Virus record (IMG/VR): IMGVR_UViG_3300027765_000001
Location: 1 to 47,234 of that record
Reading direction: 5' to 3' (one strand)
DNA from: a virus
Length of the DNA: 47,234 bases
Shown: positions 27,323 through 44,911 of the stretch, piece after piece
How positions within the stretch are numbered: position 1 is the stretch's first letter
Layout of the letters: each line of letters opens with the position of its first letter
Position numbers and translations under genes: made by a program
Notes under the pieces: generated by a model
Database searches by the model: none
Seen by the model: only the letters and a program-made list of their open reading frames with translations
What the model was told of the DNA's origin: nothing

Positions 27323-27513
27323 GACATGCCCTCCGCCACGCGGAGGATGGCGGCGTACTCCGCCGCCCGCTCGTCCAGGGCCTTGACCTGCTTGCCCATC
27401 TCCAGGGCTCTGGCGGTCGCCGGCAGGCGCCGCCATTCCTCGCGCTTGCGCTCGGCGCGCAGCGCCAGATCGGCGTGCCGAGCCCTCAGCTCGGCAATGG
27501 TCAGGGGGCTCAC
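27319..27513 (-). CDS. Hypothetical helical protein (64 aa)
   Basis: GTGA-coupled start inside track ORF 27319..27537. Confidence 0.45.
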   Translation of the reverse strand: MSPLTIAELRARHADLALRAERKREEWRRLPATARALEMGKQVKALDERAAEYAAILRVAEGMS

Positions 27514-32489: not shown

Positions 32490-33926
32490 CTAGTGACGCC
32501 ATACGGGTTCGATCAGGTCGGGGTTGAACTTCACCACCCCCTTGCCTTGGGGGTGCACGATCACGCCCTCCAGGCTCCGCAGGATCAGCGCCCGCTGGCT
32601 CGGGAGTGGGAGGGCGTCGAACGCCTCCCGCGTGTGCTCCACGACCTCGTTGCGCCTGCCTTCGCGCTCCGCGCGACGCTTGAGCGTCGCCAGCTCCTTC
32701 TGCTTCTGCTCCAGATCCTGGAGCAGTGGAAGGGCAGTGGCCATGGTGATCTGATTGGCGATCACCGCGTCCCGTAGCTGCTTCAGGTCCGCGGTGCGCG
32801 AATCCAGCTCGCGCTGGTGCGCCTCGGTCCAGCCGGCCGCCACGAACTTCAGCTGCGCGCGCTGCTGGTCGGCCAGGACCAGCTCAATGACGAGCTGATC
32901 GATTGGGGCGCCGACTCGGGCAATCTTCCCGCAACCCTTGGCGTAGCCGCTGCGGTCGCACAGGTACACCTGGTACTGCGTGCCGCTGGCGCGGCGCCGC
33001 ATCTGGCCCCGCATGGGGCCGTTGCACGCCCCGCATCGGGCGATGCCCGACAGGAGATAGCGCATGGCGTTCGTACCCGGCCGCTCCCTGGTGGGGCGCC
33101 GGGACTCCAGCGCCTCCACCACCTCGGAGAGGCGGTCCTGGGAGCACAGCGGTTCCCAGGCCGCCGGAACCGGCGTTCCGGTGTCGTCCAGAACGACCTG
33201 CCCCCGGTAGACCTTGATCCCCGCCAGAGCCGGATTCGTCAGAATCCGGCGCACGGTCTTGTGATCCAGGCGCTCCGCGCCGCGGAACCGCTTCCCGGCT
33301 CGGGAGGTCGGGGCGATGCCCCGCTTGAGCCAGTCCGTCTGGATGTCGGAGATCTTCGCGCCGGCCAGGATGGCCTTGTGTGCGGCCAGGATCTCCGCCC
33401 TGGCCTCCGGGTCGGCCGTCAGGCCGTCGGCCTGCCAGCCATAGGGCTGACGCCCCCCGTGGGGCTTGCCTTCGCTGGCAAGTTCCAGTTGCTTGCGCTG
33501 GACGCGGCGGCCGGTGTCGGCCGAGGACTTGTTAGCGAACGCCACCATGACCCGGGCCATGGTCCGGCCGTCGGTGCTGGCCAGATTCACGTCACCCTCA
33601 AGGGTGGCGAACACGAAGTTCGGCCGCTCCTCGAAGATGTCGATGGCCCGCTCAAGGTCGCGCGGCTGACGCGCGAAGCGGTCCAGGTTGTAGACCACCA
33701 CGCCCTGGATGACACCCAGGTGCAGATCGCCCAGCAGGGCCTCGAACTCCGGGCGCACCACCTTGCGCTGGTACGCCGAGAAGTCGTTGTCCTCGTACAC
33801 CCTCACGACGTTCCAGCGACGTACCGCCGCGAGGGCGCAGCAGTCATCCCGCTGTCTGGCAACGCCCTTGGCGTCGCCTTCGCTATCGTCGGAGATGCGT
33901 ACGTAGACCCCCACGTCGATGGGCAT
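32490..33926 (-). CDS. int: Large serine recombinase (integrase)
   Basis: VGVYVRISDD...GVARQRDDC...VVVYNLDRFAR is the resolvase catalytic domain, followed by a long recombinase/zinc-ribbon/coiled-coil C-terminus. The ATG at 33926 follows GGGGAGGA. The track start at 34010 lacks an SD. Confidence 0.9.
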   Translation of the reverse strand: MPIDVGVYVRISDDSEGDAKGVARQRDDCCALAAVRRWNVVRVYEDNDFSAYQRKVVRPEFEALLGDLHLGVIQGVVVYNLDRFARQPRDLERAIDIFEERPNFVFATLEGDVNLASTDGRTMARVMVAFANKSSADTGRRVQRKQLELASEGKPHGGRQPYGWQADGLTADPEARAEILAAHKAILAGAKISDIQTDWLKRGIAPTSRAGKRFRGAERLDHKTVRRILTNPALAGIKVYRGQVVLDDTGTPVPAAWEPLCSQDRLSEVVEALESRRPTRERPGTNAMRYLLSGIARCGACNGPMRGQMRRRASGTQYQVYLCDRSGYAKGCGKIARVGAPIDQLVIELVLADQQRAQLKFVAAGWTEAHQRELDSRTADLKQLRDAVIANQITMATALPLLQDLEQKQKELATLKRRAEREGRRNEVVEHTREAFDALPLPSQRALILRSLEGVIVHPQGKGVVKFNPDLIEPVWRH

Positions 33927-34021
33927 GCGGTCCTCCCCTGGTGCCGGGCTCTCAGCAATAGGGGTGACAGTACCGTAAGTTGGCTTAGTGAGATCTTTAC
34001 GCCAATCCATGGTGTTGGATT
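33927..34021. other. Candidate attP region (95-bp AT-richer gap directly upstream of int)
   Basis: Positional inference only. I could not define a core or arm symmetry by eye. Confidence 0.3.
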
Positions 34022-34189
34022 CTAGGCGGCCCGGCGCTGCTGCGCCAAGGGCTCGCCCAGGTACGTGGCCATGATCCCCTCAGCCCAGATCTCGTCTCGC
34101 GGGGGCGCCTCTTCGAGGCGTCGGCGGACCCAGTCCGCCACCACCTCCGGCCACGCCCGGGCCTCGTCCGGGGTGGGTATGTCAGGCAT
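34022..34189 (-). CDS. Hypothetical small acidic protein (55 aa)
   Basis: CTAGGAGGG SD. Internal start of track ORF 34022..34372. Confidence 0.5.
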   Translation of the reverse strand: MPDIPTPDEARAWPEVVADWVRRRLEEAPPRDEIWAEGIMATYLGEPLAQQRRAA

Positions 34190-34197
34190 CGGCCCTC

Positions 34198-34530
34198 CTA
34201 GGTGGCTATGTAGAGCTGCGGAAGGCGAACGAACAGGCCGTGGTACGCGTACCCTTCTTCGAACTCTTCGAGTGGCGCAATGGCATCCCGGTACAGGCGG
34301 CCACGCTGCTGCCATATCACGTGTTTGTGCTCCCAGCCCCGGCAGGACCGGTCGGGATGGTGGTTGATCCATCCCCAGGGCTCCCCGTTAAGGGAGCCGT
34401 CTTCCGCTAGGAGACGGCCGTACGGAAACTGCCGAAAGACTGCCAGTGTTATCTGCTTGCCGTTCAGCGTGAGCGTCTTGATCTCCACGCTTGCGGTGGA
34501 GATCAGCGCGCTCCGCGCCTCGATGCTCAC
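34198..34530 (-). CDS. Hypothetical protein (110 aa)
   Basis: GTGA-coupled internal start of track ORF 34198..34830. Confidence 0.5.
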   Translation of the reverse strand: MSIEARSALISTASVEIKTLTLNGKQITLAVFRQFPYGRLLAEDGSLNGEPWGWINHHPDRSCRGWEHKHVIWQQRGRLYRDAIAPLEEFEEGYAYHGLFVRLPQLYIAT

Positions 34531-35036
34531 CGCGCTCTCCTCTCGTACTCGGCCACGGGGCCGTAGGCCACCTGGCGGGCCCACTCGCCCGCCTCCCACC
34601 GAGTCAGGGACTCGGCGATGTGCGCGAAGCGCGCGGGGATGGCCGGCTCCGCCGGCCGGAAGAAGTTCCAGGCGTCCCGCGCACTGCGGAACGCCGGGGC
34701 CAGCATGAAGCGGCCCCGGCCGCGTCCGGTCTTGACGTCCCAGCGCATGTCCTGGCCCGCGTTGCGGGCCGCTGAGGGGCGCTCCAGCGCCTTCAGGAAC
34801 TTCTCCTGGCTGTCCAGGATGCCCCGGCATGAGAAAGGCCCCAGGATCGCCGTGTGCGGCGTCTCTGGGGCCTGGTCGGGGAAGAGGAACTGCCCGACCA
34901 CCGCGAAGCGGTGGGTGCGGGCCCTCACGTCATCGAGGGCGCCGATCACCAGATCGGCGACCTCTTCAGCCGACCGGTTCTGATTCTCCGGGTCGCTCAG
35001 GATCGCCGCTACGGCGGCGTTCTCTCTCGCGCTCAC
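34527..35036 (-). CDS. Hypothetical protein (169 aa)
   Basis: GGAAGGAAG SD followed by GTG. GC3 favours this frame in the overlap with the upstream gene. Confidence 0.55.
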   Translation of the reverse strand: MSARENAAVAAILSDPENQNRSAEEVADLVIGALDDVRARTHRFAVVGQFLFPDQAPETPHTAILGPFSCRGILDSQEKFLKALERPSAARNAGQDMRWDVKTGRGRGRFMLAPAFRSARDAWNFFRPAEPAIPARFAHIAESLTRWEAGEWARQVAYGPVAEYERRAR

Positions 35037-36731: not shown

Positions 36732-37078
36732 CGCTCGCTCGCCTCCGGCTGGGCCGCTTCGCGGCGCTGGATGATCAGCTCCCGCCAGAGGCGGTTCAGG
36801 ATGGGATAGCCGCCCTCGTGCCAGTTCTCGCCGGAGGAGTCGCCGTCGGCGTTGAAGCCGTGCAGCTCGTAGGCACGGTTGTCCAGGTCCAGCATCTCCT
36901 GGCCGGTGACGAAGTACGGCTCCTCTCCTTGACTCCCGGCGTACTGCGCCGTCATGCACGAAGTGGTGCTCTTGATGTCCAGCCTGTCCAGGTCGATGTC
37001 CTGGGCCCAGGTGGGCCACTTCTTGTCCAGCAGAGCGGCACCGCGCTGGACGCGGGCCGCGTAGTCGATCTCGTTCAT
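36728..37078 (-). CDS. Hypothetical protein (116 aa)
   Basis: ATGA-coupled internal start of track ORF 36728..37390. Confidence 0.5.
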   Translation of the reverse strand: MNEIDYAARVQRGAALLDKKWPTWAQDIDLDRLDIKSTTSCMTAQYAGSQGEEPYFVTGQEMLDLDNRAYELHGFNADGDSSGENWHEGGYPILNRLWRELIIQRREAAQPEASER

Positions 37079-37443
37079 GCCGAGACCTCCGCTCCGGTCT
37101 CGGCCGGCAGGACGCCGGCCGCGCGGGCCTTGTCCTTGAACCACTCCCAGGTACCGCACCAGTCCTCGCGGAGCGCCAGCGCGTCCAGCTCGGCCATGCT
37201 GGCCGGGAGCAGGGCCAGCACCATGCTGGCCTCCTCGGCGTGGCTCTTGGCGTTCTTGGCGATCCAGCTCACCAGGGGGTCCTTCGAGCCCTCCAGGGGC
37301 TCCAGGGCGGCCTTCAGAGCCGCCTCCTTGATGCACGCCGGGCACGTGCTCGCGTCGTGGCGGCCGTACTGCACGGGGGTCTTGTAGCACGCCTCTTCGG
37401 CGGCCTTGACGGCCGCGAGGAACTTCTCGACCTCGGGATACAT
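37075..37443 (-). CDS. Hypothetical protein (122 aa)
   Basis: The leader CGAACGGAGAGGACGGGTTC precedes the ATG. The same leader occurs at 40707. Confidence 0.55.
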   Translation of the reverse strand: MYPEVEKFLAAVKAAEEACYKTPVQYGRHDASTCPACIKEAALKAALEPLEGSKDPLVSWIAKNAKSHAEEASMVLALLPASMAELDALALREDWCGTWEWFKDKARAAGVLPAETGAEVSA

Positions 37444-37470
37444 GAACCCGTCCTCTCCGTTCGGGGGATG

Positions 37471-37509
37471 AAAAGGGGCCCCTGCTCTCTCCTGCGGAGC
37501 AGGGACCCC
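37471..37509 (-). terminator. Strand-specific intrinsic terminator downstream of the tRNA-like gene
   Basis: The 13-bp stem is fully paired only on the minus strand (one G-U pair) and is followed by UUUU. Confidence 0.7.
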
Positions 37510-37730
37510 GGCCCGCCCCCTGGCACGAGGGCGGGCTCCGATGGCCATTTGATCAAGTTCAGGCTGGCCAGACCCTTACGGCTCCTTCTGATGGATCTTG
37601 GCTAGTTGGAGCGAAACTCACCCGGACCTAGAGAGCCGAAGCCCACATCAGGCGCTGGCCGGGCCCTTCGGGGCTCACTGCTCCCCGAAGGGGGAGTCCG
37701 GCGTTCCTGCATGCGTCCATCACGGTCCGG

Positions 37731-37816
37731 TGCCTCCAGCCGGATTTGAACCGGCGACCTCGCAGACCGAGCCAGGGGCTCGGGAATGCGCGCTCTTACC
37801 TCTGAGCTATGGAGGC
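37731..37816 (-). tRNA. tRNA-like gene with canonical acceptor, D and T arms but an expanded 30-nt anticodon arm (possible Arg CCU/CCG reading)
   Basis: GCCUCCA-UA-GCUC-AGAGGUAA-GAGC-G-[CGCA-UUC-CCGAG-CCCCUGG-CUCGG-UC-UGCG]-AGGUC-GCCGG-UUCAAAU-CCGGC-UGGAGGC-A. Confidence 0.5.
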
Positions 37817-37873
37817 GCCACCTACCCGCCGCCTTCCCGCGGCGCCGTACGGTGGCAGGTCTTACGGGCGGCT

Positions 37874-38136: not shown

Positions 38137-38346
38137 TCAGACCTCGAAGCCCTGGGCGAACCGGGTGAACGCGCTCCACGCGGAGCGCTCAACCAGCAGG
38201 GTGGCCCCGTCGGGGCCCTCCTTGCCGTCCTTCACGCCGACGGGGCCGGCGGCAGGACGGGCGACGTAGACGCAGTTCTCGGGGTTGCTGTAGCTGGACT
38301 TGACGAATCCGGCTCCGTTGTGGGTTCCCAGATCTTCCCTGAGCAT
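38137..38346 (-). CDS. DUF397 (BldB-like) small protein
   Basis: FVKSSYSNPENCVYVA...VGVKDGKEGPDGATLLVERSAWSAFTRF is the DUF397 signature. GAGAGGAG SD. Confidence 0.8.
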   Translation of the reverse strand: MLREDLGTHNGAGFVKSSYSNPENCVYVARPAAGPVGVKDGKEGPDGATLLVERSAWSAFTRFAQGFEV

Positions 38347-39008
38347 TCGTACAGCTCCTCTCGGATGAACTCCCGGGAGTCGCGCGTGCTGAGAGCGCGC
38401 CCGACCATGTCGGAGAACATCGCCTTCAGTCTCGTGATGTCCTCGGTGGTGATCGTATAGAAACCGCCGATCACTGTCTCCAGGTGGCCTACGGCCGGTC
38501 CGGGATCGAGTACGAACAGGCTGAACGGCTCCGCCGTGACGGGAACCGGAATGTCCTCGGGGACCACGTGGATCACGATGTTGTTCGTGTCCTCGATCAG
38601 CCACAGCAGTTGCCGCAACTGCTCGGCGTGGCTGAAGGCGTTCATCAGGGGGCGTCGGATGGCCTGTTCCCCTACCAGGAACCAGGCTGTGGACATGGAC
38701 AGCGCCTTGCGGCGCGCGAAGAACGCCTCGGACCGCATCCGGCGGTGCGTGACCAGTAGGCCGAGTTCGCCGTGCGGTATGTCCGGGGTGTGCGACTTGA
38801 TCGCGCCCGCGGTGTACGCGGGCGTCTGGAGGAGCCCCGGGATCAGTAGGGGGCTCCACGTGCGGTAGGCCATGGTGCATGCGTCCAGGTCCGCGAGGCG
38901 GTCTATCGCCTGCGCTCCGAGGCCGCCGGCCACCTGGCCGACGCCCCTTTGATCCATGGCCCTTAAGGCTTGCAGTGCGCACTTGGCGCGCATCGAGTTG
39001 TCGTTCAT
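38232..39008 (-). CDS. DUF5753 (WhiJ/Scr1-like) protein lacking the usual N-terminal XRE HTH; contains a TTA codon
   Basis: LIPGLLQTPAYTAGAI is the DUF5753 hallmark, but only 56 aa precede it. The TTA codon lies at 38964-38966. AGGAGAGGG SD. The frame runs 115 nt (38232-38346) into the DUF397 gene. Confidence 0.7.
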   Translation of the reverse strand: MNDNSMRAKCALQALRAMDQRGVGQVAGGLGAQAIDRLADLDACTMAYRTWSPLLIPGLLQTPAYTAGAIKSHTPDIPHGELGLLVTHRRMRSEAFFARRKALSMSTAWFLVGEQAIRRPLMNAFSHAEQLRQLLWLIEDTNNIVIHVVPEDIPVPVTAEPFSLFVLDPGPAVGHLETVIGGFYTITTEDITRLKAMFSDMVGRALSTRDSREFIREELYECSGKIWEPTTEPDSSSPATATPRTASTSPVLPPAPSA

Positions 39009-39034
39009 CGGCTCCCTCTCCTGAGCGTGAACCA

Positions 39035-39063
39035 ATTGTTGCGCACGGTCACGTGCGCTGTCA
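39035..39063 (-). promoter_or_regulatory. Candidate sigma70-type promoter for the DUF5753/DUF397 pair, with a palindromic spacer
   Basis: Minus strand reads CTGACA-17 nt (GCGCACGTGACCGTGCG)-AACAAT, about 27 nt upstream of the ATG. The spacer is the inverted repeat 39041-39058. Confidence 0.3.
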
Positions 39064-43737: not shown

Positions 43738-43923
43738 ACCGTAAAGCGATTGCAAAGAGTGTGGATCATGGGGCTGAGATGGTGAAGATCTCGTGAAAAC
43801 CACAGGTCGTGACACCTCGTGAGGCGGGAGCCTCTGGCCACGTGCGGCGCCATCGGCGCTCGCATCCGTAGATCCATGTGCGGTTCCGATGCCTCAAAGG
43901 GCACCGGATGCCCTGTCCGGGCG

Positions 43924-44911
43924 CGCGGTCTTGCACCGCGTGCCGCGGTGTGCCTCTCCCCGCGTAGAACGGGGAGGGTTCATGCACCCTCTAGCGCCCC
44001 CTGAAGCCCCGTCAAGGGGTCGAACGGGGGCGGTTGGCCCAGTGGGGCACGGGACGGCCCAAAGGCCGTCAGAACGGCGTACAGCGCTTCCGGAACGGGA
44101 GTTCCGGCATCACGGCCGGCAAGGCACCGCGCAAGCGGTGATCGGCCGGCGAAGCCTCGCGCGCGCGTACGCGCGAAGAGGGCCGCTCGCCAGAGCGGCC
44201 CGACTGTCGCCTTCAGGCGACCACTTGCGTCCTCACGCCGGACGGCGTGAGGGATCGGCCGCGAACGAGCAGCCTGCCTCGCAGGCTGTCTCGGGAGCGG
44301 TCAGTGATCGAAGATCACTTCCCGCACTGTGCCGCCGTAGGCGGCACGGGTGAGCTGTGCGGAGCACAGCGAACGCAAGCGCGATGACCACATCGAAGAT
44401 GTGGCATCGCATGATCCACACGCACAGAGAGCCGGCCTGTTGGCCGGCTCAGTGGTGTGCACCTGGTGGTGCACACACAGTGTGTGGTGCCTGGTGGCAC
44501 CACACCATGGGGCGACTGGACACCCCCTCAGGCACATAGTGCCTGGTCAGAGGGGGTGGACTGTCGCTCACGCTCCAGTCCAGGGCCTTGTCTCATTGTG
44601 CGCCGTATGGCGCACATTGTCCGATTCTGTCTCTCTTTGGCGCCGAAGGCGCCAGTTTGACCCCGGGGTTTTAAAACCCCGGGCCCTGGACTGGACTGGT
44701 CCGCCCCTGGCGGTGCGTCCCAGACCCCTTAGGAGAGCGCCGAGGGGCGCTCTCAGGGATTTGCGCCTGAAGGCGCATCTGGGCGGCCCCGACAGCCCCG
44801 AGGGGCCGCCACTGTCGCGCGTATGCGCGTGGCGCCATTCAACATAAGGTCAGCAAGTCGTGTCGTCAAGTCTCACCCTCCACTTGAGGGAGGTCGGGGG
44901 TCAGTGACCCC
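43924..44911. other. Dense array of about 25 unrelated GC-rich hairpins in non-coding DNA
   Basis: Coordinates of the individual perfect stems are listed in the first finding. No frame has coding-type GC3. Confidence 0.85.

Follow-up and report, generated by a model that had tools for sequence, protein, structure and literature searches.

The 47,234-nucleotide (nt) viral DNA of IMG/VR record IMGVR_UViG_3300027765_000001 (positions 1 to 47,234, hereafter the window) looks like a near-complete genome of a temperate, siphovirus-type phage. On its minus strand, at positions 37731-37816, it carries an 86-nt gene shaped like a transfer RNA (tRNA) whose anticodon arm is closed into a rod. This gene sits within a block of minus-strand genes: the stop codon of a 65-amino-acid (aa) zinc-ribbon open reading frame (ORF) lies 57 nt upstream of it, and a gene for a 122-aa protein begins about 290 nt downstream. 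It is the sole match in the window both to the Rfam tRNA model and to a tRNA-like model of our own. The module and its parts are as follows.

37731-37816, minus strand: tRNA-like module, 86 nt; 54.2 bits against the Rfam tRNA model, cloverleaf as minimum free energy (MFE) fold, covariation over 14 modules
37810-37816 paired with 37732-37738, minus strand: acceptor stem of 7 base pairs (bp), GCCUCCA/UGGAGGC
37792-37807, minus strand: D arm, GCUC-AGAGGUAA-GAGC, with GG
37761-37790, minus strand: sealed "anticodon" arm, 30 nt, from the MFE fold; shuffle z = -3.86
37756-37760, minus strand: variable loop AGGUC, 5 nt
37739-37755, minus strand: T arm, GCCGG-UUCAAAU-CCGGC
37731, minus strand: discriminator A, followed by CCG

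A tRNA body with a sealed arm

A preliminary description of this DNA had read from the letters an acceptor stem, a D arm, a 5-nt variable loop, a T arm, a discriminator A and a following CCG, together with a 30-nt arm in place of the usual anticodon arm; all of these are present on the minus strand, and the 5' strand of the acceptor stem is followed by U8A9. The Rfam covariance model of tRNA (RF00005) aligns to the module from end to end, far above its gathering score of 29 (E = 5e-9), and places 22 nt in the anticodon stem-loop where it expects 9. Its fold contains no canonical 17-nt arm, so that the description of the gene as a non-standard tRNA stands. ARAGORN reports it as "tRNA-???" with a 2-base anticodon. 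The cloverleaf is the MFE fold of the 86-mer, at -45.0 kcal/mol, and it persists in a fold of the whole 422-nt non-coding region.

The arm is built of a 4-bp helix (CGCA/UGCG), a 3x2 internal loop and a 7-bp helix (CCGAGCC/GGCUCGG) closed by a CCU triloop (37774-37776), and on its own it is more stable than 200 of 200 dinucleotide shuffles. Among the readings offered earlier for the arm, the third, a 7-bp stem with a 3-nt loop and no anticodon, is the MFE fold; the reading as a 5-bp stem with a 7-nt loop centred on CCU gives way to the triloop, and its 7-nt loop has C33. The resemblance of the module to a tRNA is far beyond chance. A search for the host tRNA parental to the module body identified none.

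The module recurs in one gene slot of related phages

Patterns demanding the window's own arm flanks, as well as patterns of the body, gave no match in the viral and genome contigs scanned. The relatives described here were reached by way of the flanking sequences. The protein encoded just downstream led to a viral contig of matching gene order (L121), in which an 85-nt tRNA-like gene occupies the same position; the 30 nt upstream of the module, used as a probe, led to a metagenome contig (L123); and homologues of the 122-aa protein (19 clusters), with a conserved downstream RNA block, led to further loci. Together with the window these amount to at least 16 distinct loci in metagenomic and viral contigs, where all counts of loci are lower bounds and all relatives are uncultured contigs. 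Wherever the upstream sequence suffices, the gene order is kept: a DUF5753-Xre gene, a DUF397 or zinc-ribbon ORF, a gap of about 400-500 nt without a called gene, and the protein starting with MYPE, the neighbour proteins being 34-57% identical to the window protein in local alignment. In the loci with enough upstream sequence (at least 16), this gap in every case has either one tRNA-like module or two, at the same syntenic position.

Eight modules of the relatives score 36-52 bits against the Rfam tRNA model. Five more degenerate ones were added, at 19-25 bits, by our own covariance model R1, which works as a generic model of tRNAs, unable to tell the family from ordinary ones. No canonical tRNA was found in the related loci. 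The phages carrying this element appear to form a family of temperate, serine-integrase actinophages.

Selection on the body and free change in the arm

In order to follow covariation, 14 well-formed modules were aligned in register after removal of the unalignable arm and the D loop. Standard pairs are formed in 98.2% of the cells of this alignment, and 11 of 16 pairs have changed on both sides, among them all 7 pairs of the acceptor stem and 4 of the 5 pairs of the T stem. The acceptor stem, for instance, appears as GCCUCCA/UGGAGGC, GCCUUCG/CGAAGGC, CCCCUCG/CGAGGGG and GGGCGGA/UCCGUCU. None of 500 shuffles matched the observed covariation, and partner columns slid out of place were paired at 35-48%; the register was picked by structure, which biases the count in that direction, although the slid controls are nonetheless clear. 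The D stem is invariant in 13 of the 14 modules, the T loop (UUCRANY) is kept, and G18G19 is kept in most modules. The most degenerate modules (L129, L138, L150_2) have lost the D arm and retained the minihelix of acceptor stem and T arm; this coaxial minihelix, with its 7-bp acceptor stem and T loop, is kept with covariation in all modules, the degenerate ones included. The RNA shape of the module is thus under selection.

These data bear directly on whether the module is a decaying tRNA pseudogene or an element acting at the level of DNA, such as an operator palindrome or a recombination site. The arm hairpin is indeed a palindrome in the DNA, with similar ones at 27478-27494 and 34599-34615, and pairs may also seem to covary in inverted repeats that dimeric proteins bind. 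However, decay does not fit a pairing of 98% that is kept by compensation while the proteins are only 34-57% identical; the G.U and U.G wobble substitutions are strand-specific, and the consensus of the T and D loops is retained. The arm palindrome is unconserved among the relatives and is therefore not a shared operator, and a 516-nt gap beside the integrase gene is a more natural place for attP. Taken together, we regard explanations of this kind as highly improbable.

In the arm, length and cap vary from module to module. Among 21 modules its length runs from about 10 to 48 nt, and the caps found across the family (CCU, AGG, AGA, UAC, GAGA, UUCG, GCUA, GGCG, GAAA, GGCA, GACG and CCUAA) are unrelated, as the following modules illustrate.

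L148 and L155: arm of 10 nt, UCC-GGCG-GGA
L124, L131, L139_2, L160_2 and L162: arm of 12-15 nt, with loops CCUAA, GAGA, GCUA, GACG, GAAA and GGCA
Window, L123_1, L121, L128, L127_2 and L130: arm of 29-32 nt
L123_2: arm of about 47 nt

The window and L123_1 share identical leaders, stems and outer arm helices, and differ in the inner hairpin, which is CCGAGCC-CCU-GGCUCGG in the former and GAGCCC-AGG-GGGCCUG in the latter; judged from the two sequences, the hairpin tip looks roughly inverted between them. None of the 21 modules combines a 5-bp stem, a 7-nt loop and U33.

Anticodon function is absent from the family. As a genuine decoding tRNA, the module would have to be Arg(CCU), or Gly(CCC) or Arg(CCG) after removal of an intron of 13-15 nt, or else a suppressor in relatives such as L124. 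Running ARAGORN with introns allowed, as had been advised, does yield a call for the window, tRNA-Gly(CCC), with the loop UUCCCGC (U33, G37) and a 15-nt intron, and the program assigns a CUA anticodon in L124-126, where the loop of L124 reads CCCUAAG. However, in the same slot of the relatives it calls Ser(CGA) in L123_1, Pro(CGG) in L121, Leu(UAA) or Arg(ACG) in L128 and "Pyl"(CUA) in L124, with Ala(AGC) among its other calls. The acceptor, D and T stems are identical in the window, L123_1, L124 and L128. The Gly(CCC) call is an artefact, because near-identical bodies receive other isotypes and one body cannot hold four identities. The window body has A73 and C3:G70, unlike the identity set of bacterial Gly tRNAs, which includes U73; the 7-nt loop of L124 needs a G.A pair, borrows a base from the D stem and has C33; and many arms of the family end in tetraloops, which are unable to present an anticodon. 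The comparison of AGG and CGG usage proposed earlier gave nothing unusual: AGG, CGG and GGG stand at 6.7, 21.3 and 15.7 per 1000 codons in the window, and the scanned window ORFs contain no in-frame TAG.

An intron-like insertion, including the form with a CCG loop and 13 inserted nt, was rejected on similar grounds, the isotypes being inconsistent among relatives. An intron able to splice would need either a group I core, which takes some 200 nt or more, or a bulge-helix-bulge that the endonuclease of archaea or eukaryotes can cut. The insert of 13-15 nt has a symmetric 3x2 internal loop and a 7-bp helix rather than staggered 3-nt bulges about a 4-bp helix, and a group I intron would call for ten times its length. 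A Pfam scan of 30 window ORFs revealed no splicing or RNA-repair enzyme, endonuclease or ligase. With no anticodon loop conserved across the 21 modules, a decoding tRNA with an odd arm is extremely improbable, and a decoy for anticodon nucleases, another use suggested for the gene, is unlikely for the same reason. The proposal that fares well is that of a tRNA mimic, which is supported by the covarying body and by an arm that changes at will. We hold with high confidence that the module is a non-decoding tRNA mimic, in which the acceptor stem, the T arm and usually the D arm are retained, and with them the L-shaped elbow and the acceptor end, while the anticodon arm is an inert closed hairpin.

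The module within a longer structured region

The module is part of a longer conserved, structured RNA region. This unit, about 395 nt long and non-coding, follows the DUF5753-Xre/small-protein pair and precedes the next block of genes read in the same direction; it contains, from 5' to 3', a structured leader, one or two tRNA-like modules, a trailer hairpin, a three-helix motif, one or more terminator-like hairpins and a ribosome-binding site (RBS). In the window its remaining parts and the gene that follows are these.

37817-37861, minus strand: structured 5' leader, starting 12 nt past the stop codon of the upstream ORF
37713-37730, minus strand: conserved trailer, CCGGACCGUGAUGGACGC, with a small hairpin CGU-GAUGG-ACG
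37630-37712, minus strand: variable spacer with hairpins CUCCCC-CUUC-GGGGAG and GCCC-CGAA-GGGC, poorly conserved in the family alignment
37542-37629, minus strand: three-helix RNA motif, 88 nt, with CCC..GGG, GCUCC/GGAGC and GGCCA/UGGCC
37468-37538, minus strand: two terminator-like GC-rich hairpins, the second followed by UUUUCAU; a hairpin is found at this position in all family loci
37441-37458, minus strand: RBS GGAGAGGA and ATG of the 122-aa gene; the RBS and the MYPE start are kept in all loci
37075-37443, minus strand: 122-aa gene (MYPEVEQ..., with invariant W/C residues); the database entry is also 122 aa long

In the leader, an outer helix of CCUGCC (37854-37859) with GGUAGG (37821-37826) encloses the hairpin CGCCGC-GGGAAG-GCGGCG (37827-37844) and ends 4 nt before the 5' end of the module. 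The helix is found as CCUGUC/GACAGG in L124 and with GGCAGG in L128, GGCGGG being also seen, and the stem of the hairpin is CGCGCGC/GCGCGCG in L127 or is expanded in other relatives; the G.U pair of the window leader argues for an RNA read from the minus strand. The 30 nt that abut the module are 100% identical in the window, L121 and L123, while the neighbouring proteins are only about 43% identical. In L138, L139, L148 and L150, which make up a second subgroup, the leader is a different one, GGUCUGGCACCACCGGUGACGCGCAACGGUGCC, and shares GGUCUGGC with the downstream motif.

Downstream of the modules, the trailer CGG[R]A[MS]CGUG..GACGC comes after the last of them in nearly all loci. In the three-helix motif, invariant stretches (GGUGAG, GAACC, CAAY and GGGUCUGGCCAGCCUGAACC) are combined with changing helices: RNAalifold finds 13 pairs over 11 loci, 5 of them with compensatory double changes, and over 12 loci the compensations turn GCUCC/GGAGC into GCUUC/GAAGC, CCGGC/GCCGG or ACUCC/GGAGU (L162), and GGCCA/UGGCC into GACCA/UGGUC or GGCCG/CGGCC. 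This motif looks like an aptamer or an attenuator. At E <= 5, Rfam holds no family that matches the leader, the trailer, the three-helix motif or the hairpins. In this GC-rich region, the hairpins at 37468-37538 were not called by a simple terminator scan. Over 19 nt, the spacer hairpin at 37683-37701 (CCGGACUCCCCCUUCGGGG) has 79% complementarity to the sequence around the RBS at 37448-37466, and on this sequence match it could take part in anti-Shine-Dalgarno pairing.

The loops of the terminator-like hairpins (37511-37538 in the window, and those of L124, L127 and L129-L131) read AUGCCA or UGGCAU depending on the locus, the two being reverse complements of each other. Along with the arm tips of the window and L123, they hint at hairpin-tip inversion as a possible recurring mutational process.

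A leader RNA of a gene block beside an Xre-type regulator, in a temperate phage, recalls the immunity RNAs of other phages, and the arm is the one sharply differing segment between the near-identical elements of the window and L123. The module might thus be an antisense RNA of the P1/P7 C4 or P4 CI type, with the arm as its specificity determinant and arm variation giving heteroimmune types. The C4, CI and phi80 M3 RNAs are RNase P substrates without an equivalent of the T loop (PMC5499578). As small structured RNAs cut from temperate-phage operon leaders, they share with our element a context beside immunity-type regulators; however, they act through exposed antisense loops, whereas here the T arm is complete, the arm is paired with itself and no cognate target was found nearby. 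The tip of the window arm, CCCCUGGCUCG (37768-37778), is complementary in 10 of 11 positions to part of the first terminator hairpin, namely its loop and 3' side (37517-37527), but no such match exists in L121 or L123, and the one in the window is probably due to chance in GC-rich sequence. Nearly all the arms are self-paired, with loops of 3-4 nt, and some measure only 10-14 nt, which makes them poorly suited to such a role. In a duplex-energy matrix of 11 arms against 11 flanks, the own flank ranked 9, 9, 7, 3, 6, 1, 10, 7, 10, 1 and 5, that is, at random, with a mean of about 6 of 11. The Rfam C4 model found no match either, and we consider an antisense function very unlikely.

A proposed processing handle in the leader RNA

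The tRNA genes of phages are commonly put down to codon supply or to evasion of anticodon nucleases. Purifying selection on the tRNA shape, with the decoding part closed, implies that the phage gains something besides translation, and the most plausible source of this gain is the host machinery that processes or binds tRNAs. The explanation we favour, with moderate confidence, is that the mimic serves as a processing handle, or as a folding and stability scaffold, of the leader RNA.

According to this model, the module would be transcribed within a longer RNA, the 57 nt up to the upstream stop codon being taken up by conserved structure. It may be embedded in this way: there is no room for a promoter upstream, the flanking structures covary and the cloverleaf survives in the 422-nt fold, and a simple scan of the stretch from that stop codon to the module found no promoter of a sigma-70-like type. 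The parts that are kept would be those that host enzymes recognise, RNase P acting on the 5' side and, on the 3' side, the CCA-adding enzyme together with either RNase Z or exonucleases. The module may then act as a built-in handle of the kind known as tRNA punctuation, by which the leader RNA would be severed from the upstream message and the downstream structured RNA given a defined 5' end. It may serve as a very stable scaffold for folding and stability too, and its sealed anticodon loop would keep the RNA out of translation. The acceptor/T minihelix is the least that RNase P, RNase Z and the CCA-adding enzyme require of a substrate, and its persistence in the degenerate modules fits a processing handle. 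Precedents exist in the RNase P-processed C4, CI and M3 RNAs of phages and in YrlA of M. smegmatis, and the position of unrelated sealed-arm genes 35-90 nt ahead of an RBS and start codon also speaks for this model. The idea of a processing signal, already raised in the preliminary description, is the best fit among the mimic options, although the processing itself is one that we infer from shape and context.

Several points weigh against this explanation. The case for processing is drawn from shape, resemblance and context. A minihelix would suffice for it, yet the D stem and G18G19 are kept, so that there may be a reader of the whole L-shape. The terminator-like hairpin before the next gene could mean that the unit is a free-standing small RNA or an attenuator, and not a 5' untranslated region. 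In the window and in L128 the discriminator is followed by CC, which disfavours RNase Z in other bacteria. Several loci carry two tandem modules, for which a simple cut site has no obvious need. Finally, L127 has a terminator hairpin directly after the module and no three-helix motif, a layout which implies that the module is not strictly tied to that motif.

Some of these features would rather suit a decoy acting in trans, in which the released RNA would titrate or redirect a host factor that reads the acceptor end or the elbow; candidates are nucleotidyltransferases of the MenT/AbiE type, acceptor-stem nucleases, tRNA-modifying or tRNA-processing enzymes and EF-Tu. The whole L-shape is kept in most modules (invariant D stem, G18G19 and T loop), tandem copies would raise the dosage, the sealed anticodon would allow the RNA to accumulate without disturbing decoding, and Actinobacteria do have toxins that target the acceptor end. 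However, no partner gene is identifiable in the window or the related loci, the 30 window ORFs scanned with Pfam include no tRNA-related enzyme, the D arm is lost in some members, and the fixed place of the module within a conserved, covarying leader RNA points to a role in cis. A decoy of this kind, with whichever of these candidates as its target, is possible but rather unlikely. Still less probable, in our estimation, is that the module works as the sensor or effector of a regulatory RNA tying terminator read-through and the downstream genes to the state of the host's tRNA-maturation or surveillance machinery, such as RNase P, RNase Z, CCA addition or defence toxins that modify the acceptor end, or as a decoy specifically for acceptor-end toxins. 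Should a sensor or decoy function nevertheless be correct, the sealed-arm tRNA-like genes that we find in unrelated high-GC phages would represent a wider, unrecognised class.

Relation to known tRNA mimics

The known mimics of tRNA comprise transfer-messenger RNA (tmRNA), YrlA, viral tRNA-like structures and mascRNA. With canonical tRNAs (RF00005) the module has in common the acceptor stem, the D arm with G18G19, the 5-nt variable loop, the UUCRANY T loop and the discriminator A; the family differs from them in having no 17-nt anticodon stem-loop (0 of 21) and no conserved anticodon, its arm being a closed rod of variable length. In the case of tmRNA, the acceptor and T arms are also mimicked and there is no anticodon, but tmRNA differs from our module in its pseudoknots, its tag reading frame and its lack of a D stem. 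Some actinophages encode a tmRNA; none was found in the window by ARAGORN -m or Rfam. The engineered "tRNA scaffold", in which an insert replaces the anticodon loop of a tRNA and the chimera is reportedly processed and stabilised like a tRNA, has the same architecture as the module. It is, however, a laboratory design, whereas the present family is natural and conserved and its inserted hairpins have no common recognisable functional motif. In tRNA punctuation and in mascRNA/MALAT1, a tRNA-shaped module recruits RNase P and RNase Z to a longer transcript, as is proposed by inference here; those cases are mitochondrial or eukaryotic nuclear, whereas ours is a phage.

YrlA of M. smegmatis is a tRNA-like non-coding RNA with a 7-bp acceptor stem; RNase P cleaves it and CCA is added to it (PMC4201824). 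YrlA and Y RNAs, actinobacterial and phage copies included, are likewise non-decoding mimics of the D arm, T arm and acceptor stem. The termini of YrlA itself, however, lie in the Ro60-binding stem that replaces the anticodon stem, whereas our module has a closed arm and its termini at the acceptor stem. The YrlA gene adjoins that of Ro60. Our arm also lacks the GNCGAA motif, and no TROVE/Ro60 domain was found by Pfam in the 30 window ORFs or in the precomputed Pfam lists of the related loci. The Rfam YrlA model gave no match at the gathering threshold in the window, nor at E <= 5 in the region.

The module therefore lacks the defining features of each family of tRNA mimics and RNase P-processed phage RNAs with which it was compared, and no description of the element was found in Rfam 15 or in the full-text literature searched. 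The family can be seen as nature's version of the engineered tRNA scaffold and as an analogue, among viruses of bacteria, of tRNA punctuation and mascRNA, to which a new covarying three-helix motif is added. Annotation pipelines label such genes "tRNA-???" or give them a spurious isotype or suppressor identity, an error that this family teaches us to recognise.

The phage genome

The window has a G+C content of 67.7%, and the functions of its ORFs include a portal, a tape-measure-sized ORF, a capsid protein, an adaptor, lysis enzymes, a primase/Toprim protein, a PD-(D/E)XK nuclease and a methylase. Its portal is about 52% identical to those of Streptomyces phages such as Zeigle, WRightOn and FlowerPower, and BLAST of GenBank phages found no DNA relative of the region or of the 86-nt element. 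Three further features are these.

32490-34010, minus strand: large serine integrase gene
34011-34526: gap of 516 nt without a convincing ORF, directly upstream of the serine integrase gene
38232-39035, minus strand: gene of a DUF5753 Xre-type regulator

The 516-nt gap is the likely attP region. The 122-aa protein is always encoded 3' of the RNA unit in the family. It belongs to no Pfam or PHROG family, and its AlphaFold model, a helical bundle (pLDDT 86), has no fold match in the PDB (best E = 1.2) and hence gives no clue to function.

The second ARAGORN call in the window, a "tRNA-Pyl (CUA)" at 43915-44001 on the minus strand, is a false positive, with no T loop, no cloverleaf fold and no Rfam match; the region is still strongly structured (z = -2.7). 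Palindromes of the form CCGAG-N7-CTCGG, like the arm hairpin, occur at 27478-27494 (CCGAGCCCTCAGCTCGG) and 34599-34615 (CCGAGTCCCTGACTCGG), and with up to 3 mismatches the window has 5 such matches against 1.2 expected. The two palindromes could be protein-binding sites or due to chance.

Sealed-arm tRNA-like genes in other phages

A structural pattern scan returned, among the matches listed, type-I tRNA bodies with long closed arms in unrelated high-GC viral contigs, which include at least L016, L037, L047/L056/L063, L049/L082, L094, L100, L107 and L113. Several of these lie 35-90 nt upstream of an RBS and a start codon, and some stand in arrays with normal tRNAs. This distribution suggests that sealed-arm tRNA-like genes form a wider class.

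Four genes from different phage families, L123:246-349 (minus strand), L016:3182-3268, L057:4262-4348 and L043:2304-2383, have the common arm-flank motifs CCC(C)-AAYCCGG ... GCAC-GGG(G), which may derive from one ancestral insert or serve for binding. Another family, recurrent and low in GC, carries the sequence AAGGGAGGATAGCTCAGCGGATAGAGCGGCGGTACGTACCCAAATGGCCAAGATGCAGCAGGAC and was observed in L002, L010, L014, L026, L034 and at least about 15 further loci, many of them from sample 3300045988; with 40 nt between the D and T arms, it is another non-standard tRNA-like gene of phages.

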